DNA from: Phoronis australis
Lineage: Eukaryota > Animalia > Phoronida
Direction: 5' to 3'
Length of the DNA stretch: 64,000 nt
Assembly: GCA_002633005.1 (NCBI GenBank)
Contig: NMRA01000198.1
Span: 373,282-437,281 of the forward strand
Under the pieces are notes generated by a model that was not told where the DNA came from, did no database searches, and saw only the letters and a list, made by a program, of their open reading frames with translations. Of this stretch, positions 1,442 through 51,688 are shown piece by piece (the stretch's first letter is position 1; the number at the start of each line of letters is the position of its first letter). A program made the position numbers and the translations under genes.

Positions 1442-4403
1442 GGATCATTTATTGTGCACTGTTATTTATGGACATAAAATTTTAAAGAATTAAAGATTTA
1501 TTTGATACAGCACACAGCAAAACTGGCGTGAGTCAGATCTTTGCTGAACACGGCAAAAGTTTTTGATACCGTTGTTCTTAATTAGTTTCTTGAGAAAAGT
1601 TGGATTTCACCACTCTGGTTAAAGTGACTTTTTCACGTTTTAATTGTGCTACTTAGTTACGGTTCAAAATTATAGCCAAAAAGTGACCATTTAGGCCCAG
1701 TTGCAGGAATGCAGTGGCAGGTTTAGGGGGTTCTCCCAGCATGAGCCCAAAACATTGCTGACATGCTGTTTTAGGCACTGCAAAAATGTTTGCTTAAGAT
1801 TGGCTGATGTAACTGTATGAATTACATAACAGCAATGCCGCAAGTTTTCCGGTGAATTTTTATGCAATCCAGCCTAAAACTGTCTTTAGTTCCAGTGAAT
1901 TTCATTCAGTATTTCAATGTGGCTTACCAGTCTGGCTTGCTCCAGTGCAAAGTGTTCTTTGAACAAGCATAATGGCCAAACTGCTTTATGTCTTCATACA
2001 AACGAGATGCTTTGATTCCCGGATGTTCCTAAGATTTTTTAGTTACTGTTAAATTGTTGAATTAGTCAAGGTGACCATTCTCTGCGAAATACGTCGTTTG
2101 GGGTAGTGTTGATGTGAAGCCTATTTTGTTTTGTTACATTTTTATTGACTCGTTGCTAAGCAACTGAATGAGCACATTTTGCCAAATCTAATTCCATATT
2201 TTATCCTATATGTCAAACAGATTTCAATGAATATTTTAATAAACTATGGTAATATACACGATGGCAGTGGTAAAATTACCCTTTGACTATTCAGGTATAG
2301 AATCTTGGCTTTTTTTAAAAATTACTGCTGTCAGTGGCCATCAAGACTAATGATACGTCATATTTGATGTGGATGACATGGATCTAGTACTTCTTTTATT
2401 TCACCACCACCACCACCGTCACCACCACCCTGTTACCGACAAAATGCCGCTAGCATGCTGTGTTCAAGGTTTGCAGGTCAAACCTTTATTCTTCAAAAAG
2501 TGGTTACCACCCTACCCCTTGATCTATCAGTCTGTTTCAATGGCAATGTGTTATGTGGAGGATAAGTGAAATTATATTTTGTCAAATTTCTCAATAAAAA
2601 TAAATCTTTTCGGAAATTTTACTTTGCTTTTAGCAAGTTTTGTACAGTACAACTCTCACGGTCAACAAATAATATTTGCTGAAATTTCGAGCATTTGAAA
2701 ATAGAAAATTCACATTTTTTTGTCCCAAATGGAAGACTTATTTTCGAAGGAAATTCAAAACTGGCAAAAGACTGTGTATATATAATGAAAATTCCTTAAT
2801 GTCTTTTCGTCAGGACATCTTCAAATAATTACCAATCCTTATCTCAAGAGCAAAAATGAAATTGAGCTGAAAACTGATTTCAAAATTTCGCTCTGCCTTG
2901 TTTGTAAATAAATAAATTTATATTTATATGATATATATGAATATGTATATATGCACACTATCAGCATCAGCTTTATGGTCTAAAACTTTTTTTTAATTAT
3001 TGCTACTTGGGATAAATTTCGTGCAGCTTTGACATGAGCAATAAGACTGAAAAGTGTTGTGTTTCTGTGATTTTTATAGAAAAAAGTTCAGGTTTTTCTT
3101 TGCAAGCATTTTTCTGTCTAAATGTTTTCATAGAATAAACCTGTATCAGATGTCCAGAAAAGTCTACTATAGCTTCAAGTTCACAGATATTAAGGACTGT
3201 AATGAGTTTGTTGGTTTGACAACGAACATTCTCAAGAACACAATAACTGAACATACCAAAGATGCCAACAATACCGTATTCAACCAAACTACTGTGTTAC
3301 ATTTAAAGACAGTGTAAAATGAGCCAACTGCCTTTTAGATATTATGTTAAATACTGTACTTTTGTGCAACATATCTTTGTTTCGTTTTATTCCAGGCAAC
3401 CACTAATTAATTACTACACATTTTATGCCCCCAACATTTTGTGCCCCCAATGGAAATCCCTCTCACTTTCTTGACCTATAACAGTCGACAGGTGAATTGA
3501 ATCATCTTTGTGACCAGCACATTACCACACTAATTGTACAAACCACAGCCTGAACAGCTGATCGCCTACAGGGACAGTAAAAAATTAAGTAGTTTGCTCA
3601 AGAAACGTCACCAATTAGAAACAATTGCCGACTTAAGGCATCACTGTTGGTTGATAGCGCAATTACTAACTAAAACAACTGTCAGGTAAAGCACCCTTCG
3701 AACCCTACTCACTTTACAGCGTAGATCACTGATAGAGCGCTATCGGTTCACTCACAGCGAACCGAGTTTGGTAGTATTTGCACCCATGTAAAACGCCAAA
3801 CAATAGCTACGTTTCGTACTAAATCTGACAACGACGATCGTGACTCAGAAATATGGTCAATTAACGGTGTGTGTGAATTTACGTCTCGTTTATATCGCAA
3901 AAAACAAACGTGAAGATGACGAACTTTGACCATTACTTGCCAAACGACGGTCATAACGTGTCTTGCAGCAGAGTAATCATAAGTCCTCTTCTCACCTCTA
4001 CCCTCCTCTACATACCTCTACTCACCTCAAAAACAGTTACGCCTGCCTCTATCTGTGGGATTCCTTTGCGGATTTTCATTCAATTTTTAATGACAGTGTT
4101 GTGTTAGCGAGATGACGACGCCTTGCTTTGCATAGTTTCAATGTATTTTGTGCCATCTAATGGCCATCTTTATGATATTAAAAACACTACTGGGATTACA
4201 TTGCAATCGTGGGTACAATTTCAACGTTCCACGTAATCTTGTTTACAGAAAGCAAGCGCAAGCATCAAAAAATTTAGATACCATTTGAGCATTTGTTGCC
4301 ATACTTGATTTGTCCAAGGTTATAGTGTAGGGGGATAGGTTGTTTTTCAAATGAGAATAATTCATTGCACACCACAGATCCCATCGAATCTTCTCATAGA
4401 AAA

Positions 4404-11035: not shown

Positions 11036-11704
11036 AAGTTTATTAAAGTTGAAACAAACGTAACATGATGTCACTGGTTAGCATTTGTACAAAGCTGTAT
11101 AAAAATATTGGATAGCGATAAAAACTGATGTAAAAGTAATACCATTAAAAAAGTACACTCTTCCTTTAGGTAGGATTAATGGTTTACCGATACTTGGATA
11201 TGGCTGTTATTCTGTACTAGTAGCTGAATTGTGGAGCGTTCACATGCATCAACTTTGAGCACCATCTGTTGAACAATTTCTGTTTGTCATTCGTTAATTA
11301 CGTTTCTTTTAAATGGTTGTAATGAAAAAGGTAGGTGTCATTTGAGTGTCAGGTGGTTGCAAAAATTTANAAGTTTATTAAAGTTGAAACAAACGTAACA
11401 TGATGTCACTGGTTAGCATTTGTACAAAGCTGTATAAAAATGTTGGATAGCGATAAAAACTGATGTAAAAGTAATGCCATTAAAAAAGTACACTCTTCCT
11501 TTAGGTAGGATTAATGGTTTACCGATACTTGGATATGGCTGTTATTCTGTACTAGTAGCTGAATTGTGGAGCGTTCACATGCATCAACTTTGAGCACCAT
11601 CTGTTGAACAATTTCTGTTTGTCATTCGTTAATTACGTTTCTTTTAAATGGTTGTAATGAAAAAGGTAGGTGTCATTTGAGTGTCAGGTGGTTGCAAAAA
11701 TTTA
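11036..11704. repeat. 334-bp tandem duplication joined by a single N, probably an assembly artefact
   Basis: 11036-11369 and 11371-11704 are identical apart from two A/G differences that I could see. The junction base 11370 is n. Confidence 0.85.
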
Positions 11705-29740: not shown

Positions 29741-32528
29741 GTATCAGTGTAGAGTACTGCCTACTGTGAAGTCCACTGTGGCGGTATCCAATTTTGTGAT
29801 AAAGATTCGGACAACCCGTGTGTCACACTGCATTTTTAGTGGCACTTTTGGGCGCTTTAGATCTTTATGTCTAGGCATTAATGTCATGCTTTTGGTGAGA
29901 GGTCTTATATGGCATCTAAACTTGGAGGTCATCTTTGTGGATATTGGAGGCAGCAAGTGTTGAAGTTAGTGTTCTGTCATCTGTTCAAATGTTATTTGAT
30001 GTCTGTTATAACCCTTAGCTTGCTCATGTTGTTATCATTTTACATACCTGTTTCTAGTTCTCATGTCTGGTGTCTTTTGATGGATGTTGAAAATGTCTTT
30101 AATCTTGTGGATGCATTAGTCTTTTTTAATTTTTAAAATGTCAAGTGTATTAAAACATGCCTCTAGTTTTCTGGTCTCTACAGGTCTTGTTTTGTTGAAT
30201 TAAAGGTATAGTCCCTAGGTTAAACATTCGCAAATTACGACATGGGAGATTGTGTCTTTGGAATACTGCTTTACAACACCGCATCACAGAGTTCCTGTAG
30301 TGTGGATTTGTGACAGTTGCTCTCGACTCGCATACTCTCTGACATCATTCCCAGACAATCTCTGCAATAAACTGTTGGAGAATGGCAAATAGATAGGTTA
30401 GGTCATGTTGACTACATACAGGGACGTCAGATTGACTATAGCCGTGCTCAGGTTATCTAAATCTGGTTGTAACTCTTTCTAATGTTGTAACTGTTACGTA
30501 ATTGTTACCGTTTACAGCGTTGACTCAAGTTCAATAGTTTGAGCCTTGGTGCGCCATTGATTCGAATGAGTTTTGACAGCAGCGCCACCTACTGAGTGAT
30601 AACTTGCAACTGCCTTGTTCACACAGAGTTACAACGGTTGTAAACTTTTGCTAAACCACCCTCGCAGAGGGTTGTTACAGTATTCAGACCAAGAGCTTTA
30701 AAAGTCATAGCCGCTTTGGTGTGAGCAGGGTGTAAATTTTTTGTCTGGGAATAGTGCGGACGTATTTGGATTTATGCCAAGATTGTAATGGTCAGTGAGT
30801 AAGTGAGTGGAAGGTGTTTTTGATACAAGTGTACCTGGAAGCTTATGAAGTAGATAAAAGTCCAAGACTATGCCTTTAATAGTATCCTTTCGTCACAAGT
30901 TGTGGGTCAGACGTTTAGTCATGAGTTGTGGCGTTTCTTTTCTCGTCTAATTTACTCATACTTGTCCTTTATTACCTGCATGTAACCAGTTCTGGAAAAA
31001 AGAGCGGGAAAAGGTGAATTTAAATGGAGTTACTCTGTTCACTGACAACTTTCCTGTTTAAAAGTTAACACCGATTTTCACTAAAAGCTTTCTTATTTTT
31101 CATGTCTCATTTAGTTTTCTCTTGACCTCAAAAGTCACTGCAGACCTGCTTTTGGTTTGCTCATTCACATGCACTATTATGTCTCATTGTTGGATGTCAC
31201 AGCACATCATTTCTTCCAGTGGTATTTGTGTGTTCTAAGGCGTCCTCAAAAAGCTCACTGCTAGTTATTCATAATCTAAAGCACTGATAACAAGCTTGCT
31301 TTTAAGATCCCAAGTATTTACATTTCTGATAACAAATTGTCAGGTTTTGTTAAAGATACATGTAGCACCATCACTGTCCTGGTAGGGAAGCCTTATTATT
31401 TTTTAATATGGTGGATAAGTGTTACCAATTTTATACAATTATTCTATGGACTGTTGACTCAAGTTCAATGGTTGTGGTAAAATCTAGTCAATTTCGGACA
31501 ATGGTGATTGCCAAAACTTCCGTTTTCTATTTTCCGAAGGGTTTTAACATTGTTGTGAATGTTTACAAGTTTTTATAATATTGTCTCATGGTGCATTACA
31601 GCTTTAGTACTGAACTTGAAAGCAGTGATGTATTGAATGGTTGCTGCTGGTGTCTTAGGAAATAATCGAATTATAAGTGTTCACTTGTCCACCATTTCAT
31701 GTCTTGGTACGTGAGATTTTTATTTAATTTACCAAACTTCAGTGGCAATATTCACTACTACAAGCTTAATGTATTCTATCTTAAAATTTTATTTAATTCT
31801 GGGTGAGTGTGCCGTAAGTGTTAAAAATGTCTCAACTTTTGCAAATGATCGATTGACTGATGAAACAGTTTGCCTATAAGCCATTATTATTAATCTGCAG
31901 TACTTTCTAGTGTAAATCTCACACTGGAACTTGAGTTTGCTATAATTGCGGGAATATCTGGGAAGAATAACATAAAACCAGCTTTATACTGGGAGCAAAA
32001 AATAAAGTGTCCAAAATGAATTTCTCAATTTCTAAGAGTGTCCAGTACTGGTGACGTCCGAAGTCAAATAGCCCTTATAGTGAAATGTGCTACTGCGGAG
32101 AATTGGCTCTACAATAAATTTTTTTTCGTGTCTTAGGTAATTTCAGGCCTATGAGCCCTCAGACCTGCTGCTTGCAATTTAAAGGAGACAACTGTGGTTA
32201 CCACACTTGTAGGTCACTTAGGCGTCCTAGTTAGGGTTTCTAAATGTGATTCAATTAGACAATGACACCCCCTAAATGAAGACCTGATGAGTAAGTCAGT
32301 TTTGGAAAAAAAAACACAAATTAGTGTTTTGGACTTTCTAGATGTATTTACTTTATTCCGTTTTTTGTAAAGAGGATGTATAACATAATTCATTTTCTGA
32401 TTTCATGCTACTTTCCTACGTTGTCCAAGTAGCGAGTGGTACAGTGATCTCGAGGCAAATGGACTGAAGTAATAGAATAATGGGTAGCATCAACATCTGC
32501 GTGTCCCACTACGCTTTGGGACTTTACC

Positions 32529-37476: not shown

Positions 37477-37666
37477 GGTGAGCGCCTGAGTCATGCTGTT
37501 GGTTGTGCTTTCGCTATCTGTCTGGAGCGTAAACAGAAACGTGATAAGGAGTCGGGCGTCACTGTGCAGTACAGCGAGGACAAGACGAGCTTCACAAGGA
37601 CTGGCTCATTCCGTCAGACGACGTTGACAGAGAGGCTGGCTGACCCACAGTCTGCCATCGTACCAG
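37477..37666 (+). CDS. numb: Numb coding exon 5, end of PTB domain ([25 protein letters not shown]...FTRTGSFR...IVP)
   Basis: tttgcag|GGT ... CCAG|gtacgg; 190 nt, phase 0-1. [22 protein letters not shown] is a Numb signature. Confidence 0.97.
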
Positions 37667-38379
37667 GTACGGGTGCAAGGATTCGATTACTTGTCGCTGA
37701 AGAAAGGCATGGAATCAAAGTCAATTGCAAGACATTAAAATAGATTTTGTCGTCTTGCTAAAAATATAAATTCATGTAAATGAATATTTTATCACATTGA
37801 AAGGGTGTAGTCACTTAGGCTGAACTCGATTCTAAACATTTCCCAGCATGTGGAAGGATTGTTCATGTTTGCTCATGTCTTGATTAATTTAGTTGCTAGT
37901 CAACTTTTATTCAAAAACACTTCATCCGAAGTAAAACTAGCATGGGCATCACAGCTTTCTGAGACCTTTTTGAGACGGTGATGCCGTAACGACTCTTCTA
38001 GAATCTATTGGTCTATTTACGCCATCCACTGATTGGGGGGATGTGACAAGTCTTGTATTAGTGAAAAAATAGTGCAGGTGGTCTGATGCACATTGCTTCA
38101 GACCACTCTGCCAGGTCAATTAAATCAGATAGCTGAGTCGTTTCCCATCCATTTATTAATATATACATTTACACAAATTAAGACGAGAGGTGAGGAGATA
38201 CAGGCCTGTCTCAAGGGTCTAGCAGTGGAGTCTAGTGGGATTTGAACATGCGGTTATATTGGTGAAACCAGGATTTCTGAACGTACAAAGTGTCATAAGT
38301 GCCGTCCACACACAGACGTTCCCTAAAACAAGTTACTCCTGGAATGAGTGGTGGCTAGGTTTGAGTGTCGTCTGGACAC

Positions 38380-38700
38380 TATTTAAACTAGCGCAGCTTA
38401 CCCTAATTGTGACAACTTACTTCACTTTATCGAGGTGGGATAATTTGTTCTAGTGTAACTTGCATCACTTGTAATTGCTGTGAGCTGACGAAGTGGGGTA
38501 AGGCGGAAGTAATTATCAGCTGCGCTTACATGTAGACGGGTTTTCTTCTGCGCGCCATACTCTCATTAAGTGTTCAATGTCATGCATAGAGTGACAACTT
38601 CCGCCTCACCCTAGTTATCAGACATGTGTGTGTGGACACTCCACTTAAAAGTGGGTTAAGTTGAGCTAATGCAAGTTGTTCCAGGGTAGGCTGTGTGTGC
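38380..38700. repeat. Degenerate palindromic (MITE-like) element
   Basis: GGGGTAAGGCGGAAGT near 38494 is inverted as ACTTCCGCCTCACCC near 38597. Outer arms CAGCTTACCCT / AGGGTAGGCTG. Confidence 0.4.
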
Positions 38701-39290
38701 GCGGGACTGTTGAGGTGGCTGTTGCTCGCCGGGTGTAGCAGAGCTCATCTGATAACAAAATCAAGTCCAATGGGATACCATTCATTTTCAGAATTTAGTG
38801 ATGACGTGTCTGTCACTATTATGACCAACAAACAGGAATAGAAATGCCTATCACATTTTCAAAGTGTTTGCTAGTCTTGGATTTTTTCTCTACGAAATTA
38901 TATGTTTGGAATAATCAGTGTGCTTTGACATCGGTTGGACCCATTGTAGTCTCTGGGAGGTTCAGAAGGATTAAGATAGACCAGGGGCCTAGCCAGGTAA
39001 TATTTTTCGAAGTGTTTAGCAATTTGCAGCACCATGTAAATCTGGCCTGATTATTATTATTTTTATTGTTTTGATTTTGGAATTTTAATATATGTGAGTG
39101 GGTCCAAAACGTCATATTAAACGAGTGAATATTTGACAGTTGAGGAGGTTGGATTAAAAAGTATTAAAGGAAGCCATGTACATGAAGTTGAACGCCAGTG
39201 TGTTCACTTTACCTAGAAAGCAGCTACGCAACACCTTACTGCCTCTCTGAGGAATATACGAGTATAGCTAAATACTCCAAATAAATGGAT

Positions 39291-39555
39291 GACTCAGTGA
39301 TCTAGTGGTGAGAGTGCTGGACTGACAAGCAAAAGATATTTGGTTAATTCCCACGTGCGCTAAGAAATATTTTCAAGAAAGTGCTCATCAATGACCATCC
39401 TTAGTTTACTACATACCCGCGCTTGTTCTAAGAACACTATGCCACGTGAAGATGGCTGGATATATGATTGTCTGAAACATGGTGCCAGTGTAAATAGTCT
39501 AGAGGTGGTGTATACTGACCAATAGATTTTAGAAATGTGATGTCGGGCTTAAATA
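39291..39555 (+). mobile_element. Decayed tRNA-derived SINE
   Basis: A-box-like TGATCTAGTGG (39298) and B-box-like GGTTAATTCCC (39342) at tRNA spacing. The 3' end is approximate. Confidence 0.45.
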
Positions 39556-39733
39556 TTTCATTTGAATTGAAAAATATGCTTCTTTGTTGCACTGCTCTTT
39601 TATTTTCTGTGTGTTATCTCTGGGTATCCAAGAGAATTGGTTGTTAACATGGGCTGGTGTGTGGCTTCCTGAAACAGAACATGAAATAAATCAAATTGCA
39701 CACATTGTTCTTAACATCAGCATTTTTCCACAG

Positions 39734-39979
39734 AACCAGTCAGCCCTGTGGCTGCGGTGGGCGTGACCCAGGCAGCGGTGGAGACCAAGCCCGTGCAGCG
39801 GCCGCACGCCACCCAAGACATGCTCTACCGCCAGGGGTCATTCCGCGGATTCTCCAAGCTGCAGGAGGCAGCGTCACCATTCAAGCGCCAGCTCTCACTC
39901 CGCCTTAATGAGTTGCCGTCTACGCTGCAACGACAGAGTGACTGTGGTGGTGTGGAGGGTCCTGGTGCCAATGGGCCAG
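39734..39979 (+). CDS. numb: Numb coding exon 6, NumbF region (RPHA...RQGSFRGF...[20 protein letters not shown])
   Basis: ttccacag|AA ... CCAG|gtgggt; 246 nt, phase 1-1. Carries the conserved RQGSFRGF and [16 protein letters not shown] phospho-motifs. Confidence 0.96.
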
Positions 39980-40123
39980 GTGGGTTATCAGAAATTTCTG
40001 TTGAATAGTATGGAATTGATGTGAAATTAATAGTGACAGCTTAGTAAAGATCTGTCACAGATCAAGCTCTCGTCAACCGTTTACAGCTTCTTGACAACAC
40101 TCGTACTCGTGCCTGGTGATACA

Positions 40124-41408
40124 TTTTTATGCGCCCACATATTTATATGTGGACGCATTATGCCGTCATCTCCGTCCGTCCGGGTGGCGTCCGTCCGCCG
40201 TCCGCAGCTTTATCTCCAAAACCCTTTGACATACGTTCATGAAATTTGGCACATATGTTTCATTCATGAATGGGACAGCATGTGCGAACTTTCAGACGAT
40301 TCCGACTACGGGTGTGCCCCCTAGTGGCAATTTAGTTTTTTACACTTACCTTTGTATCTTCAGAAGTCCTGAACGGATTTTCATGAAATTTGGAATGTAG
40401 GCACCTATTACACCTATTAGTGAGATGACGCTATCCTCCCGATTTCAGATGGATTCGACATAGTTTACGCCACCTAGTGGCCATTTTTAGTGTTTTCGAG
40501 TTGTTTTTTGTGCGTCCACCCCTCTATCAACCAAACCGCTCAAAGAATGATTGTGAAAATTGGCATGTATATGCTTACTATGTAGAGGACGGTTGACGAT
40601 GATTTTCAGACGATTTCGACTACTGTTGCGCCTCCTAGTGGCAGTTTTTTTTTTGCGCCTATGGCTGTATCTTCTAAACCGTTAGCAGGATCTTTACGAA
40701 ATTATGTATATTTATATGATGTTAACAATGGAAGATGACGAATTTTAGACGGATCCGACTACCGGTGTGCCCCCTAATGGCAATTTTAGTTTTTTATGCT
40801 TACCTTTGTATCTTCAAAAGTCCTGAACGGATTTTCATGAAATTTGGTATGTAGGCACCTATTAGTGAGATGACGCTATCCTTCCATTTTCAGATGGATT
40901 TGACATAGTTTGCGCCACCTAGTGGCCATTTTTACTGTTTTCGAGTCTGTTTTTGTGCGTCCACCCCTCTATCAACCAAACTGCTCAAAGGATGATTGTG
41001 AAAATTGGCATGTATGTGCTTACTATAAAGAGGACACCTGACAATGATTTTCAGACGATTTGGACTACTATGGCGCCTCCTAGTGGCAGGTTTTTTTTTG
41101 CGCCTATGGCTGTATCTCCTAATCCGTTCGCTGGATCTTTACGAAATTTAATAAGTGTANTTCAACGCTCCGCGTTGCTCTTGTTACTGTTTTTGAGTCT
41201 ATTTTTTGGCGTCCACCCCTCTATCAACCAAACGTTTTGCCCCTAGCCTATTGAGGACACAATGACCATGCCTTTCCATTTTGCAAAGTACAACATACTA
41301 CATATATGCCCTCTACTGGCCACTTGATGGTACCAATAAACAACCCTAGAAGGATACTGTATACGGTGCAATTGTGGGCGCATTTCAATGCTCTGCGTTG
41401 CTCTTGTT
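40124..41408 (+). mobile_element. Non-autonomous Helentron-like element (HINE/DINE-1/pearl-type), copy 1, with internal higher-order tandem repeat
   Basis: 5' TTTTTATGCGCCCACAT...ATGTGGACGCAT hairpin, then (CCGT)n microsatellite and ~150-bp monomers. 3' subterminal inverted repeat GTGGGCGCAT, short hairpin CAATGCtctGCGTTG and CTCTTGTT end. A single n at 41160 marks a join. Confidence 0.8.
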
Positions 41409-41735
41409 CCTTTGGTTACTAGTTTCTTGTTTCTTTCTATTAGTAGTTCATGCTTGGGTGTTATCAACCAGCAACTAACTAATACAGTTCGACTCAGTGC
41501 TTTTGGAAAGCAAAACTTAGTTCTACCAAATATTCTTGGGGGTGTTCTAGTATGACTCAATGTTAAAAGAAGGAGAGTAATTATTGAACTTCAATGGGCT
41601 TGATAAAACAACTATATAAGTAAATTTAGTCATTGCTAAAATAAGCACTGTGTGTGTGTTTAGTGTAAAATACAAGGTTAAAACTTTGTAGCTGTCAGGT
41701 TTCCCAGTACTGACCACCACTGTCTTTGTTTACAG

Positions 41736-41906
41736 CGAGTCCAATAGCAGAAGTGTCACCATCAAAAGAGCGAGCGGAAGAAAATGCTGACAGCATAGCG
41801 GCCCTGTGTCAGGAGTTGACTTCTGGGCTGTCGGCTCTATCCTCTGATGACCCTTTCGCCACAGTGCCGAAGTCTCCAACGACAACACCACAGCACACCC
41901 ATCAAA
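41736..41906 (+). CDS. numb: Numb coding exon 7 (ASPIAEVSP...DSIAALCQELTSGLSALSSDDPF...HQ)
   Basis: tgtttacag|CG; weak donor AAA|gtatat in the phase required by the next exon; 171 nt, phase 1-1. DSI..LC.[EQ] and DPF motifs occur in Numb proteins. Confidence 0.85.
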
Positions 41907-42119
41907 GTATATATAAACCTTTTGCAATATATCATTACAATAAAAACAACAAGATGTTTTAACCATGACTTGTTTTAGCGGGTATGTCCACTATTCTTAA
42001 GCTGCAATTTAAGACTGACGAGCCCAGGATGTAGGTTTTATACCATTTTTGTACACAACAGCATCATTGATTAAACCAAGATAAATCGTAGCTGGCCAGG
42101 GTCTGATCTTTTTACTAGA

Positions 42120-42347
42120 AATCAAACTCAAACTCATTTTGGGAATTTCGCACTCAAGATAAGTATCAGTCTGTGCTCTAGTACATTGTGGTTTATGTAC
42201 ATGAGTTTCTAGTTCATGTTCACACTTGATGACCTCTACAAACAAACTAAAGTAAGAACTTGGAATTTCGAGTAAAAATGCAGAATTTCCAATCCAGACC
42301 CGAACTTTTAGCGTTAATGCTGGGGTCATCAAATGCGAACTATGACT
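42120..42347. mobile_element. MITE-like repeat, copy in the last numb intron
   Basis: TTAATGCTGGGGTCATCAAATGCGAACTATGA matches the reverse complement of TCATAGTTTGCACTTGATGACACTAGCATTAA at 44728. Internal inverted CACTTGATGACC / GGTCATCAAATG. Confidence 0.6.
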
Positions 42348-42977
42348 TGACGGTTATCCGTAGGAGTCAGTATGTGCTCAAGCATGGAATAATAGACACT
42401 TCTCTTGCAGTAGCACAAAAATAGAATCGGAAATGCAGAAAATTGTTTCGATTTTGAGAAAAAAAGGTTTGACCTGGGTCCTGTTTTTTTGAAAGTAGTC
42501 AGTGGTACAGTATTTTTTAGTTTATCACTTTTTAAACAAAGATAATCTGAGATGGACAAAAATGATGCAAGATGTGTTTTTTTACTCATCGCTTGGCACA
42601 ACATGGTGTTTCAAACCTTGCTTGCCCTTTATTATGTTCCTTTGTGGAGCTTTTCAAGAAAAAAACCAGTCTTTGGCAGGAATTGACGGTCCTGGGCGTT
42701 TTGTTTAGTTCAGTTGGTGAGCGTAGATACAGATCAGCACCACCTATGTTCTTTGGCATTAATCATGTTCAGTTTTTTTTTGACTACAGTACTCCATCAA
42801 AATGGAGTTAACTAGTTGTGTTAACTGTGTTAAGATCACCATCGTATTGGTTCTAAGTGGTATCAATGTTTCAACACAGCCGTTTGTTGAGGGTCATATT
42901 CTTCAGTGGGTGTATATCCTGTTCTCTTCACATTCATTCTTTTTTATACCTTATTGATATTTTGTATTGCTTTGTAG

Positions 42978-43543
42978 CCATTTCCTCCGTTCATTCCACA
43001 CCAGTCCACCAGCAGCAGCAACAGCAGAACATCAACCCGTGGGCACAGCACTCAGCGACACCTAGTGCAGACTTTTGGCTCAGCACGTCACTGACTCAGA
43101 CAGCCAGCCCGACACCCGCCACCCAGCCAACGTCATTCGTCAATGGCAACTCTTCGTTCATGGGAGCTGCGGTGCCGGCAGGATTCCATGGCTCTCCGCA
43201 GCCTCACCATTATCATCACCACCAGATGGCCGTTGGCCACGCCCGAAGTCATTCCATCGATAGCAGCGACTTGTTCTCATCGCAGCGGAAGCCAACGCTG
43301 TCTGAGCTCGCCCGGCAGAACACGGTACAAAATGGAACGAGCGCTTTTGGCCCATCTACTAACCAGTGGCAGACGTTGTCTGCTAGTCATAGTCAGACAG
43401 CAACTGCATTCGATCCGTTTGATGCTGCCTGGGCAACACGAAAAACAAACACGACAAGCAGTGTGGGAGGTGGCTCAACTACGAATCCCACGAACCCTTT
43501 TGCCAGTCCAGGATCAACCAAGGCGTTTGAGGTCAAGCTTTAA
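42978..43543 (+). CDS. numb: Numb last coding exon (poly-Q, NPW, RSHSID, DPF, NPF, C-terminal KAFEVKL*)
   Basis: tttgtag|CC in phase 1; stop TAA at 43541-43543. DPF (alpha-adaptin), NPF (EH-domain) and the terminal FE.[KE]L are Numb hallmarks. The summed CDS is 1614 nt with exon 3A (537 aa) or 1695 nt with exon 3B (564 aa). Confidence 0.95.
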
Positions 43544-44895: not shown

Positions 44896-47813
44896 AAAGT
44901 AGAACTAAAAGTGTTGCAAATAATTTTATTGTCAAGAACAGCAACATGCGATCTCCATACCTGGGTACGTACCAGCTGGAATAACAAGCATACCTGGCTA
45001 TATATCATCCATCTGGCATGTCTGGTTCTATACTATCTAGCATAAATGTCTGGCTTTTTCTAGTGGTGATAACATCCATATCGGACTTTATACTGTCTGG
45101 GATACCCTCCTTGTGTAGGATAACACCCACGTCTAGTTTTATACCAGTTAGGATAATGCCCATGTCCAACTATACCAGCTAGAATAACGCCATGTTTGAC
45201 TCTCTTGTATCATAGATTGAGGCTAAACACTTTCGAGTTCTACTTATCAAAAATATTGCAATTTCGTGATTGTTGCCTAAGTGACGATAACATGATACAG
45301 GGAAATTAACTATGATTTTTCTGGCTCTAGAGTATTATTTGATTTTTTTTTGCATTTTTGTCATGGTTGTCATTTTTTTCAGGAAACTGCTTGTGAATTA
45401 ACTTTTTAGGGAACAAATGTCTCAGTTTCTTTGATTTAGTGTTGGATGCATTTCATAAGTCAAAAGATGGGATCCTTTTTATGTGTAAAACAGTCTGTAA
45501 ATATTCCAGTGTGTGCTTAGTCATTTGAAGACGTGTTCGCCTAAACTGTGCAACACAGTAATCAGTCATCATTCTACTCTATTTACCTGTAGTTCTGTGA
45601 TGTAGATTTTGATTTTATGCACTCTTATACTTTTACACAAATTTCCATCCATTTTTTTGCATCCAGTGTTTCTGTAGACACTAACATGCGAGTGTTTATG
45701 GATTACATTATTTTACTTGCATTCATTTTATCCGTTGTAGATTATTCTGTGTTTCTTTATGTTGATTTTATGTATTGTTAGGTAGGTTTTGGGCCTGCAG
45801 GTGGCTGTTCAGTTTTTGAACGGTGTAGGTAGAATTTGATCAATTCATCAATGCTATTGAGTATTAAGGATGTGGTATTTCATATTCGTTCGCCTTTGTG
45901 GTGTGTCCATACTAAATATCACTTATTGGTATCTGCTAAGTTGTTTGACATTCATTTCTTCTTGCATATTTCAGTTGGCAAAATCATACCTAATTGTTTT
46001 TGATGTATATATTTTCAAGATTTTAAAATATATGGACAGGCTCTGACGAAAACTAATATTGCCTGTGTTCTTGCATTGGAAAGGTACAAGGAAGCCTAAG
46101 CACAGGTGTAACCAATCAAGATTTGTGGTCAGTGTGTAACTTGTAAATGTGGCATGACGGGCATTATTTGTTACGTAATGACAGAGCCTGGCCATGTATT
46201 TTATTGGCGTGATAAGTGAAAGTCTCGCGTTTTGAGGACCAGTATTAATTACAGTTGGGTTTAATGGGTTTTGGCCGTTCCTGTTTTGTATTCAGGTATA
46301 TTCACTTGTATAGGTATCAGCTTAATGCTTACTGCTCAGCATGGAAATTGGCCATTATTTCTCGCACTGTTGAATTGTTTCAGTCAGTGTGTGTATCAAC
46401 ATTCAGAGCAAAGGATCAACGCAGTATCGCCTTGGTTGTCGTTAGCAGCACTAATGTGTGAAGGTGTGTCAGTGCTTTTGTAGCTATTGGGTAGTGTTGT
46501 ATTCAATATGTTAAACTGTAATCAGTTGCAATATACTCTTTTCATCAATTTATGCAAAATGAATGTATGGTTTTCAGTAAAAATCCCGTGCATTTTCGTG
46601 TCAAATGAGGTTCATTTAGGTTTTTTCATCCTTGTTGATTCACATGTAATTATATGATACTATTTAGGATAATAGTTGAATATAACGTACCCACATTTTG
46701 AGAACCAGTTTGATGCCAATTATTCAGTAGAGGAAAGTGGTTATCAAAATGCAGGCACATTATATTAGCCTGTTTTGTTCAAACTGATTTATGCTTGTTG
46801 GATGTTTTACTCTGTGATGGCCACCGACGCTGTTTTGTTCCTCTCCAAATTCAGGATGTGCTAATGAAAGATAGTTGTTGTCTAATGCATTATGCTTACA
46901 AGGACATGTTGCACACATGCCTTTATTGTGTATATTTGTGTATCAATATCAGTTACTGATTGAATTAAAATGGCGGTGCAGTTCGTGAAACATGTAAATA
47001 CAGGAATTAAGAGACCATAAAATAATTTTGTTATAATGTGAACATTAGCTGACAAGAGATGACTGTTTGTGTAATATGTCAGATTGGAAATAGAGACATT
47101 TCTCAGCTATGTTGTGTGCTTGTATTGATTGACCTAACCATGTGGCACCTAAGACCACCAAGCTTTATTCAAGATTGACTTGAAAATTGACCACCAATCA
47201 TTTGGCATACTTAAAGTTGATCTTTAAATTTCCTGCTATGTGAAGTGGTCAATTTTTGAGTTGATTAATGTTTGATCATGTGTGCTTATGAAAAAGTGAC
47301 ACTCGTTGCGTTGCAATTTTCAGTTATAGGTTGAATGAAGCTAGTTCACACCAAGTGAAGCATAACCTTGGTGCAGTGCATTGAATATTTCAAGCAGTTT
47401 TGCTGATGCATAAATGCTTCATTCCGCTCGAGGTACCTTTGCTATGGACGGCCACATTACGAGTACGCAGTGTTTACATTTCAGCTTTCTGTTTGACTTG
47501 GATCACAGTGACAAGCACTGTGTGGAAAGTGCCACAACTTTCAATTATTTAAACTTCTGCATTAAGTTTCTGTACCAGCGTCTTAATTGATGTACCCTAT
47601 TTGAAGCGAGTTCAGTGACCGAGTGAAATGTCAAGCAACCACTTAACACCAATCAACTCATCAGGGACTATTCCTTTGAGAAATTGGATGTTTGTGGCAG
47701 GAGTATACATTGATGGGTACTTACAGCAAGTATTTTTTGCGGATAGGATGAAAAACGAAAGCAACCACAAAATGACTTTCTTCTCACTGGTTGGCAGTGG
47801 TAAAGGCTTTTTA

Positions 47814-49139
47814 TTATGCGCCCACATATTTATATGTGGACGCATTATGCCGTCATCTCTGTCTGTCCGTCCGTCCGGGTGGCGTCCGTCCGGCGTCCAG
47901 TGCTCTATCTCCAAAACCCTTTGACATATGTTCATGAAATGTGGCACATATGTTCCATTCATGAATGGGACGGCACGTGCGAACTTTCGGACGGATCCGA
48001 CTACCGGTGTGCCTCCTAGTGGCAATTTTAGTTTTTTACGCTTACCTTTGTATCTTCAAAAGTCCTGAATGGATTTTCATGAAATTTTGGTATTTAGGCA
48101 CCTATTAGTGAGGTGACGCTATCCTCCTGTTTTCAGATGGATTCGACATAGTTTGCGCCACCTAGTGACCATTTTTAGTGTTTTTGAGTCTGTTTTTGTG
48201 CGTCCACCTCTCTATCAACCAAACCGCTCAAAAGATGATTGTGAAAATTGGCATGTATATGCTTACCATGTAGAGGACGGTTGACGATTTTCCAACGATT
48301 TCGACTTCTGTGGCACCTCTTAGTGGCAGTTTTGTTTTTTTTGCGCCTATGGCTGTATCTCTTAAACCGTTCGCAGGATCTTTACGAAATTGTGTAAGTA
48401 TATTTATATGATGTTAACAACGGAAGATGACGACTTTTGGACGGATCGGACTGCCGGTGTGCCCCCTAGTGGCAATTTTAATTTTTTTACGCTTTGTATC
48501 TTCACAAGTCCTTAACGGATTTTCATGAAATTTGGTATGTAGGCACCTATTAGTGAGGTGACGCTATCCTCCCGTTTTCAGATGGATTCGACATAGTTTG
48601 CGTCACCTAGTGGCCATTTTTAGTGTTTTTGAGTCTGTTTTTGTGNNNNNNNNNNNNNNNNNNNNNNNNNNNNNNNNNNNNNNNNNNNNNNNNNNNNNNN
48701 NNNNNNNNNNNNNNNNNNNNNNNNNNNNNNNNNNNNNNNNNNNNNNNNNNNNNNNNNNNNNNNNNNNNNNNNNNNNNNNNNNNNNNNNNNNNNNNNNNNN
48801 NNNNNNNNNNNNNNNNNNNNNNNNNNNNNNNNNNNNNNNNNNNNNNNNNNNNNNNNNNNNNNNNNNNNNNNNNNNNNNNNNNNNNNNNNNNNNNNNNNNN
48901 NNNNNNNNNNNNNNNNNNNNNNNNNNNNNNNNNNNNNNNNNNNNNNNNNNNNNNNNNNNNNNNNNNNNNNNNNNNNNNNNNNNNNNGAGACAATGACCAT
49001 GCCTTTCCATTTTGCAAAGTACAACATACTACATATATGCCCTCTACTGGCCACTTTATGGTACCAATAAACAACCCTAGAAGGATACCGTATGCGGTGC
49101 AATTGTGGGCGCATTTCAACGCTCTGCGTTGCTCTTGTT
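47814..49139 (+). mobile_element. Non-autonomous Helentron-like element, copy 2 (N gap 48646-48986)
   Basis: Same 5' hairpin, (GTCC)n tract and monomers as 40124-41408, and the same 3' end GTGGGCGCATTTCAACGCTCTGCGTTGCTCTTGTT. Confidence 0.82.
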
Positions 49140-51295: not shown

Positions 51296-51688
51296 AGATC
51301 ACGTTTGAGTCTAATGCGGGAATTAAAACTTACAAAAATTAGCGACGTTGCGTCCACATCTCACTTGTGCGCTACTGGACATGATTTCAATACGAATGAT
51401 GTCACTATCTTAGACTGTGAGGAAGACTTGTTCAAAAGGGGTGTAAAGGAAGCTCTCCATGAGCGAATTGAGAGTCCATCTTTACATAAAAGAGACGGTT
51501 TACGATTCGATTTGTCACACCTATGAGTTTGTGTACTGACGTCAATGCCGCGCCGTTTAGCCAAAATGCCACCAATTGGCTAAAATAACGATAACGTCAC
51601 AAGCCAAGCTGAAGCCCGTGAGATGCGGATGCAACGTCGCTAATTTTTGTAAGTTTTAATTCCAGTATTAGACTCAAACTTGATCTGT
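51296..51688 (+). mobile_element. Penelope-like element fragment (GIY-YIG endonuclease tail) enclosed by ~70-bp inverted repeats
   Basis: Peptide SHLCATGHDFNTNDVTILDCEEDLFKRGVKEALHERIESPSLHKRDGLRFDLS is typical of PLE C-termini. 51296-51364 is the approximate reverse complement of 51618-51687. Confidence 0.8.

Follow-up and report, generated by a model that had tools for sequence, protein, structure and literature searches.

The element and its setting

The DNA considered here is a stretch of 64,000 nucleotides from the phoronid Phoronis australis (GenBank assembly GCA_002633005.1, contig NMRA01000198.1, positions 373,282 to 437,281 of the forward strand); the whole stretch is referred to as the window, and positions are counted from its first letter. 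The window is eukaryotic and includes a Numb-like gene. A GT..AG intron of this gene (39977..41732, + strand; the exons end at 39976 and start again at 41733) holds a repetitive element at 40124..41408, also on the + strand. The structure of the element supports its assignment to the non-coding, non-autonomous Helentrons (HINEs). Each of its ~150-bp repeats bears one copy of a short block that resembles the binding core of the protein CTCF, and all of these blocks lie on the minus strand. A HINE insertion of this family delivers five to seven co-oriented matches to the CTCF core at a spacing of 139-161 bp, and the lineages of the element keep the block.

CTCF-like blocks

The blocks were defined by the core motif of bilaterian CTCF, written as the 14-position IUPAC consensus CCASYAGRKGGCRS, and all matching was done with this consensus only. 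Seven blocks are present within 40314-41319 of the first copy of the element (copy 1). Two are perfect: block A1 (CCACTAGGGGGCAC, 40314..40327, - strand) and block B2 (CCACTAGGTGGCGC, 40912..40925, - strand), the latter also being a palindrome with a 5-bp stem (fold z score -3.08). The remaining five, again on the minus strand, have one mismatch each: B1 (CCACTAGGTGGCGT, 40467..40480), A2 (CCATTAGGGGGCAC, 40767..40780), the identical C1 and C2 (CCACTAGGAGGCGC, 40628..40641 and 41073..41086), in which the K position is occupied by A, and the block of the right flank (CCAGTAGAGGGCAT, 41306..41319), which is located about 90 nucleotides (nt) from the 3' end.

The original prediction, made from the sequence without database searches, had placed TAGTGG/TAATGG cores at 40322, 40475, 40636, 40775, 40920, and 41081 and TGCCCTCTACTGGCCA at 41307; all seven are found in place. 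The single orientation and the ~150-bp spacing that it described are likewise observed, the block starts being separated by 153, 161, 139, 145, and 161 bp, and then by 233 bp before the right-flank block. Its claim that the blocks match the CTCF consensus needs qualification: all seven are within one mismatch, but only two of the seven are perfect, and the C type departs at the K position.

Such matches are far more numerous than expected by chance. Three perfect matches to CCASYAGRKGGCRS occur in the 64-kb window, compared with none in 100 shuffles, and 16 matches with at most one mismatch occur where 0.34 are expected (standard deviation 0.59, shuffle maximum 2). Seven of these 16 belong to copy 1, five to a second copy (48009-49050), one to a distant relative (4150), and three lie elsewhere; the 13 within the three HINE-related stretches are, without exception, on the minus strand of the element. 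When the 11 repeat blocks of the two copies are considered together, three are perfect, seven have one mismatch, and one, in the C-type repeat of copy 2, has three; each of the two right-flank blocks has one mismatch.

Architecture of copy 1

Copy 1 (40124..41408) is bounded on the left by an edge that is uncertain by about 5 bases. Both edges were placed from loose contig ends seen family-wide, and both ends are common to copy 2. Near the left end, the 5' subterminal inverted repeat ATGCGCCCACA lies next to its complementary repeat; together (40129..40158, + strand) they can form a hairpin in single-stranded DNA, in which 40129-40139 folds with 40146-40158 (-10.1 kcal/mol, z -5.35, none of 200 shuffles as good). 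The same repeat pairs with positions 41373-41383 at the other end of the element, where TGTGGGCGCAT is its exact reverse complement. Downstream of the hairpin is a GTCC/GTCY-type microsatellite-like stretch (40172..40205, +), which was read from the sequence and within which Tandem Repeats Finder (TRF) reports CCGTCCG x2.1 at 40191-40205. Copy 2 has such a stretch too, and according to the portion of PMC7492417 available, microsatellites of this type are known from the left flanks of several HINEs of the oyster Crassostrea gigas (Cg_HINE). A partial first repeat, corresponding to the second half of a monomer (40206..40295, +; direct-repeat family D3), then links the left flank to the array.

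The array itself (40296..41159, +) was delimited by direct repeats and repeat alignment and consists of six repeats in the fixed order A-B-C-A-B-C: A1 at 40296-40448, B1 at 40449-40609, C1 at 40610-40748, A2 at 40749-40893, B2 at 40894-41054, and C2 at 41055-41159, the last being cut by an N at 41160. Individual repeats are 139-161 bp long, and the array has a higher-order period of 445-454 bp (direct repeat D1: 293 nt, 91% identity, spacing 445). TRF, when run on the window, does not report the array, because the repeat types are only about half identical to one another.

After the single N at 41160 comes an additional, internal 3' terminus (41160..41185, +; direct repeat D7), composed of the hairpin CAACGC TCC GCGTTG and CTCTTGTT (-5.6 kcal/mol, z -3.46). 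It may represent either a nested or adjacent insertion, an end that was bypassed, or an assembly or scaffolding join. This internal terminus (41160-41186) is better preserved than the 3' end of the element itself, and the sequence after it is in register with the B repeat. In contigs from relatives (the loose ends of public run X6, described below), the sequence continues past 41159 into the rest of a normal C repeat. Because of the N in copy 1 and the assembly gap in copy 2, the assembly does not fix the true number of repeats or the inner 3' end.

The right flank (41186..41408, +; direct repeat D5 and right-flank alignment) comprises the tail of a B-like repeat, a diverged last repeat, and the 3' end. 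The 3' end (41373..41400, +; inverted-repeat pair I2) consists of the 3' subterminal inverted repeat TGTGGGCGCAT (41373-41383) and a terminal hairpin (41386-41400), CAAYGC TCT GCGTTG, with a 6-bp stem and a 3-nt loop, after which the element finishes in ...CTCTTGTT. One stem base is mutated in copy 1, and the fold is not above that of shuffles (z -0.17); the hairpin at the same place in copy 2 has -5.6 kcal/mol and a z of -2.18. A T-rich run precedes both copies, both end in ...CTCTTGTT, and their 3' flanks differ (CCTTTGG vs TTATTTA). No flanking direct repeat is found at either copy in the window, and no empty insertion site is present among the contig joints listed.

The description of the locus as a Helentron-like element is therefore borne out, as every structural hallmark of a HINE that could be tested is present: a 5' subterminal repeat with its complementary repeat, a microsatellite on the left, a central array, a 3' subterminal repeat with a palindrome, and many sharp-ended, non-coding copies. 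The window contains no long open frame, such as that of an autonomous partner. Two other origins were considered and rejected. With respect to a coding origin, open frames inside the array are at most 107 codons, five frames give no Pfam matches, and a recurring FQTI..TT..PPSG reading is stopped in type B. With respect to an RNA origin (tRNA, 5S, or SINE), an Rfam scan of 40000-41500 at E values up to 10 gives four chance-level matches far below the gathering scores.

A high-copy family

Copy 2 (~47811..49139, +) lies 7.7 kb downstream of copy 1 in the same orientation and is more decayed, with blocks that have one and three mismatches. It was recognized by its shared ends and by repeat alignment, its flanks differ from those of copy 1, and it has the order A-B-C-A-B, an assembly gap (48646-48986, 341 N), and a right flank. 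A motif search places its CTCF-like blocks, all on the minus strand, at 48009, 48155, 48313 (three mismatches), 48459, 48600, and 49037. A third, much more diverged HINE relative is represented by its 3' part at 3890..4245 (+); the right flank of this relative keeps GTGCCATCTAATGGCCA, and its CTCF-like block at 4150-4163 (-) has one mismatch.

Abundance outside the window was assessed with contigs from public runs (Logan) aligned to the element at 80% likeness. Run X1 contributes 23,900 contigs and run X4 8,602 (organism A, the source organism), and smaller numbers come from runs X6 (178; organism B) and X8 (181; organism C). Summed word depth is 8-13 in the unique flanks vs 4e4-4e5 inside the element, and loose contig ends in X1 pile up just before 40124 (182 contigs), before 40127 (53), and behind 41408 (335). 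Taken together, the contig counts, the jump in depth, and the piled-up ends indicate a high-copy family with sharp common ends, which is common to the runs of at least two other organisms. Two marine metagenome runs also carry small shares of the element. Probing a metagenome contig collection with a left-flank 26-mer and a repeat-A 24-mer yields no further copies, nor does probing genome and viral contig collections with a 23-mer of repeat B.

Conservation of the block

Conservation among repeat types was measured in an alignment of 11 repeats from the two copies, in which the consensus sequences of A, B, and C were compared in 158 sliding windows of 14 columns. Conservation as a whole is judged from a small sample of three repeat types, two copies, and a single distant relative. 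Agreement among the three consensuses averages 0.52 per column, whereas it is 0.83-0.90 in the CTCF-like block, and the 12 best of the 158 sliding windows (0.76-0.905) all overlap GYGCCNCCTAGTGGC. These values agree with the original prediction, in which the motif was described as the most conserved block of widely differing monomers. Conservation extends past the 14-mer, to an A.G..T..GAC pattern 10-20 nt away and a T run.

Contigs of X1 indicate the state of the block in the family at large. At 40777, G replaces the A of copy 1 in 99% of the depth (544,611.9 of 550,249.4), and at 40467 the same A>G difference accounts for 97% (69,685.7 of 71,941.8). With these letters the A2 and B1 blocks become perfect, and the family majority is a perfect match to the consensus for types A and B. 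Variation within repeat types was assessed in a second contig alignment, on 40749-41159, in which X1 supplies 13,725 contigs, X6 117, and X8 115, and variants with a share of at least 20% were counted; the A2 block lies too near the start of this stretch for variants to be assessed. Within the B2 and C2 blocks (28 positions) there are none of the 39 distinct variable places listed (40 of 44 rows; 40797-41129), where 3.3 would be expected (P 0.026). Variants at such shares are differences between active lineages rather than decay after insertion, and the constraint they reveal would thus act on the element and not on the host.

The pattern of change among lineages is also informative. When five lineage versions of the block are compared (A, B, C, right flank, and distant relative), only positions 4, 8, 9, 13, and 14 vary. 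Each of these is one of the six positions at which CCASYAGRKGGCRS is degenerate, and its eight fixed positions are invariant; the probability of this by chance is 0.003, a value softened by the fact that the distant relative was itself found through its motif match, and A, B, and C alone give 0.16. Letters that fall outside the IUPAC sets are T at position 4, A at position 9, and T at position 14. TGCC.TCTA.TGGCCA is among the best-kept stretches when the right flanks of the two copies are aligned with that of the distant relative. The distant relative otherwise aligns little; beyond the block, the alignable parts are the subterminal repeat, the hairpin region, and two boxes, ATGAC and TTTGCA.

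The right-flank alignment conserves the block to the same degree as the subterminal repeat and the hairpin region, which would suit an alternative reading, that the block is a cis signal of the element itself with only a coincidental likeness to a CTCF site. It could be a site for the Rep, helicase, or endonuclease of an autonomous partner, or a signal for repeat gain and loss, for example, a pseudo-3'-end. Other features would also fit such a role. Two diverged families have the block at a similar distance (~82-90 nt) from the 3' end; the B block, a palindrome (5-bp stem, 3-nt loop) with a T run behind it, is built like the 3' terminal hairpin with its 6-bp stem; and the internal 3' terminus at 41174-41186 is in register with the B block (D5). 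In addition, conserved sequences of other kinds mark the repeat ends of related elements, as described in the available portion of PMC3879986, and the 13 largest C. gigas clusters are without the block. However, no such site is present near the 5' end, and the A, C, and right-flank blocks do not preserve the hairpin. As a conserved feature the hairpin was in fact rejected: only the B block folds (z -3.08), the z values for A, C, and the right flank are -0.01, -0.15, and -0.37, and the difference between types within the stem is not offset by a compensating change. Variation placed exactly at the degenerate positions of CTCF is not expected for the site of an unrelated protein. The family majority reaches a 14/14 IUPAC match in two of the repeat types, which is very unlikely by chance (0 times in 100 shuffles of 64 kb). 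An element signal with chance resemblance to CTCF is, on balance, somewhat unlikely.

Predicted role of the block

The conservation described above suggests that the block is probably a sequence-specific protein-binding site under constraint at the level of the element. The predicted reader is the CTCF of the host, an identification that we hold tentatively, at a little less than an even chance. The insect CTCF motif has a CTAG center that resembles the HINE block. In vertebrates the orientation of CTCF sites follows a convergent rule, by which extrusion is stopped; given the placement of the motif on the minus strand, this rule would predict that a HINE insertion stops extrusion arriving from lower coordinates. 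CTCF would bind up to five to seven sites per insertion, about one nucleosome apart, and because all sites point the same way, the insertion would act as a one-sided CTCF cluster. Selection on active lineages of the element would maintain the block, while old single insertions would decay. For the element, the result could plausibly be copies that are insulated from the surrounding chromatin, or accessible within it; for the host, some insertions could serve as boundaries. That insertions do insulate, and that this aids persistence of the element and is sometimes used by the host, we consider unlikely.

Published work on other animals makes CTCF a plausible reader. Conservation of the protein is concentrated in its zinc fingers, similar sites are bound across bilaterians, and CTCF of C. 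gigas has been cloned, according to the accessible part of PMC7021899. CTCF-like motifs are present at borders of topologically associating domains (TADs) in squid (PMC10658181, in part) and at loop anchors in cephalopods (PMC13652810, in part), and the CTCF motif is the most abundant one in annelid open chromatin (PMC7854359, in part).

Several observations weigh against this interpretation. Invariant runs elsewhere in the repeats are as long as those at the blocks: one of 33 nt (40983-41015) is followed in length by 29 nt (40906-40934, including the B2 block), 24 and 23 nt, and 19 nt (41071-41089, including the C2 block), so that the block is one of several fixed stretches in its repeat type. 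Only 2.7 of the 36 listed differences between copy 1 and the family majority would be expected in motif positions and two are found, indicating that the motifs of copy 1 decay at the background rate with no visible protection; copy 2 likewise has blocks with one and three mismatches. In the C-type block the K position is occupied by A. Copy 1 lies in a gene body, where methylation of the CpG in the B and C blocks could block CTCF. Since very many stretches of DNA were screened, some chance CTCF-like matches are expected. Comparison with other elements points the same way. The repeats of DTC84 of Donax trunculus and of CvA keep other sequences near the repeat end, which fits signals specific to each element family. 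In the arrays of the 13 largest C. gigas clusters, CCTAGTGGC is found 0 times, GCCACTAGG once, CTAGTGG 11 times, and CCACTAG 54 times (array tables of the PMC7492417 supplement, first 400 characters per cell); arrays without the block imply that it is not general to HINEs.

Some of these observations would equally fit a block without function, whose apparent conservation comes from shared descent, from homogenization (by gene conversion or unequal exchange that starts where the repeats are most alike), or from a low local mutation rate. The smallness of the sample, the equally invariant stretches within a repeat type, and the background rate of decay in an inserted copy are all consistent with this, and in the aligned contigs the apparent conservation could be inflated, as depth peaks on the block where partial alignments anchor. 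Yet repeat types that are 0.52 identical overall keep 0.83-0.90 in the block, and the block is still recognizable both in the right flank and in a distant family in which the neighboring sequence can barely be aligned. Moreover, the CpG in the block is expected to decay faster, and homogenization would not restrict variation to the degenerate positions of the consensus. Lack of function thus seems quite unlikely.

Very unlikely, in our estimate, is a third alternative, in which the block is read by a host DNA-binding protein other than CTCF, such as another multi-zinc-finger protein that possibly silences the element. That the sequence is conserved and the pairing is not points to a protein as the reader, nothing in the data names that reader directly, and conservation reaches beyond the 14-mer (A.G..T..GAC 10-20 nt off, and the T run). 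Against this, the fit to CTCF is complete at eight of eight fixed positions in the five lineage versions, and active lineages would be expected to lose, not keep, a site recognized by a silencer.

If host CTCF does read the block, a rolling-circle family may have seeded an invertebrate genome with thousands of cassettes, each with five to seven co-oriented, nucleosome-spaced candidate CTCF sites; this scenario, which would also explain the "conserved boxes" of pearl and HINE elements, is possible but doubtful. Outside mammals, this would be the first known expansion of CTCF sites by a transposon. The conserved boxes would then be docking sites for host chromatin proteins, kept for persistence of the element and convertible by the host into boundaries. 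If bound, these thousands of natural, dated, and partly polymorphic multi-site insertions would allow directional CTCF barriers to be tested in an invertebrate. One transposon family may also give a large share of the CTCF-motif matches in the genome, and analyses of TAD borders that are based on motifs would need to account for it. Such insertions would bear on how CTCF-based folding evolved outside vertebrates and flies; for spiralians, the knowledge summarized in a 2023 review consists of motif enrichment at squid TAD borders only (PMC10658181, in part).

The host gene and other features of the window

The Numb-like gene is represented at 37558-43540 (+) by four exon matches (42-59% identity), the last of them in a C-terminal exon that has DPF and NPF motifs. 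Its exons match a Numb-like protein, P0001 (369 amino acids, carrying PF06311; best match 42% identity). A 2,063-nt contig of X4 joins 39976 to 41733, and the joined exons form one open frame. The depth of this spliced contig is 119, vs 7 for the genomic flanks, in a run whose kind is only guessed as DNA; the contig fits material derived from mRNA, although it may instead be a processed DNA copy. The HINE repeats end in TTTTCAG/A, and types A and B hold G/GTATGT-like strings, which on the host strand resemble splice acceptors and donors. Exonization of the repeats is conceivable; the spliced contig seen omits the whole intron.

Other repeats are present in the window. At 30540-30600, a solitary GCGCCACCTACTGA occurs after GATTCGA...GTTT, loosely like the start of a B repeat, and sits among inverted repeats of the GTTGTAAC type that appear to belong to another small element. 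Two 300-nt copies at 11036-11670, 99% identical, flank a single N at 11370 and are probably an assembly duplication at a contig join. A 128-nt direct repeat (41-168 and 51536-51663; 88% identity, 51.5 kb apart) represents another dispersed repeat family.

Comparison with known systems

Mobile elements that distribute sites for an insulator protein have precedents. Rodent SINE B2 reportedly has a CTCF site in its consensus, so that each burst seeds new sites, with binding shown by chromatin immunoprecipitation. SINE B2 is a retrotransposon with one site per copy, whereas the element described here is a rolling-circle DNA transposon of an invertebrate with five to seven co-oriented candidate sites per copy. 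The gypsy retrotransposon of Drosophila contains an insulator made up of clustered Su(Hw) sites, and its insulation has been shown experimentally. The phoronid HINE is like gypsy in being a mobile element with a dense array of candidate insulator-protein sites, for which gypsy offers a working model of a mobile, multi-site insulator; the protein, the class of element, and the spacing differ, and insulation by the HINE is a prediction.

DINE-1 of Drosophila (PMC4067079) is the founding HINE, and we know of no CTCF-type block described in its central repeats. The phoronid element shares with DINE-1 the non-autonomous Helentron class, the subterminal repeats, the central region of repeats or microsatellites, and the 3' stem-loop (in part as summarized in the accessible text of PMC7492417). 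PATC insulators of Caenorhabditis elegans that derive from Helitron minisatellites are, in the part of the preprint available (bioRxiv 10.64898/2026.08.08.743475), also tandem repeats on rolling-circle transposons with a proposed role in chromatin insulation. Those, however, depend on DNA mechanics with a 10-bp periodicity in an animal without CTCF, while the repeats here are ~150 bp and bear a discrete motif.

The closest likeness is to Cg_HINE and the "pearl" family (CvA, CvG, and DTC84 of D. trunculus), as far as the available portions of PMC7492417, PMC3879986, and PMC5139131 describe them. Common features are a 5' subterminal repeat with an adjacent complementary repeat, a GTCY-type microsatellite in the left flank, central repeats of 140-180 bp, a 3' subterminal repeat followed by a short palindrome, a non-coding sequence, and a high copy number; DTC84 also has repeat variants in a fixed order (PMC3879986, in part). 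The element is not one of the 11 described Cg_HINE: the 9-mers of the block and of both subterminal repeats occur 0-1 times in the CL1-13 array tables (first 400 characters per cell), and none of these 9-mers occurs in the C. gigas satellitome supplement. One word is shared, the 9-mer TTGTGAAAA, which is part of the second conserved box of the B repeat (40997-41012) and is found 1,057 times in Cg170-like arrays of C. gigas. It hints at a possible deep homology of the repeat families outside the CTCF-like block.

Segments of reduced variability are also a property of these bivalve repeats. Their function was left open by the authors, who suggest chromatin proteins or transposase-like mechanisms for the conserved motifs (PMC3879986, PMC5139131, and PMC7492417, each in part); CTCF is mentioned 0 times in the text available from these three papers. 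Our literature search, which covered few subscription journals, found no report of CTCF-type arrays in Helentrons or in bivalve-type satellite repeats. Among the motifs of bivalve satellites and MITEs to which their authors assigned no function, one may now have a candidate reader. DTC84 conserves the palindrome TTGTCCGGACAA, and CvA a microsatellite-like motif (PMC3879986, in part); in the phoronid element, the conserved segment fits the CTCF consensus.

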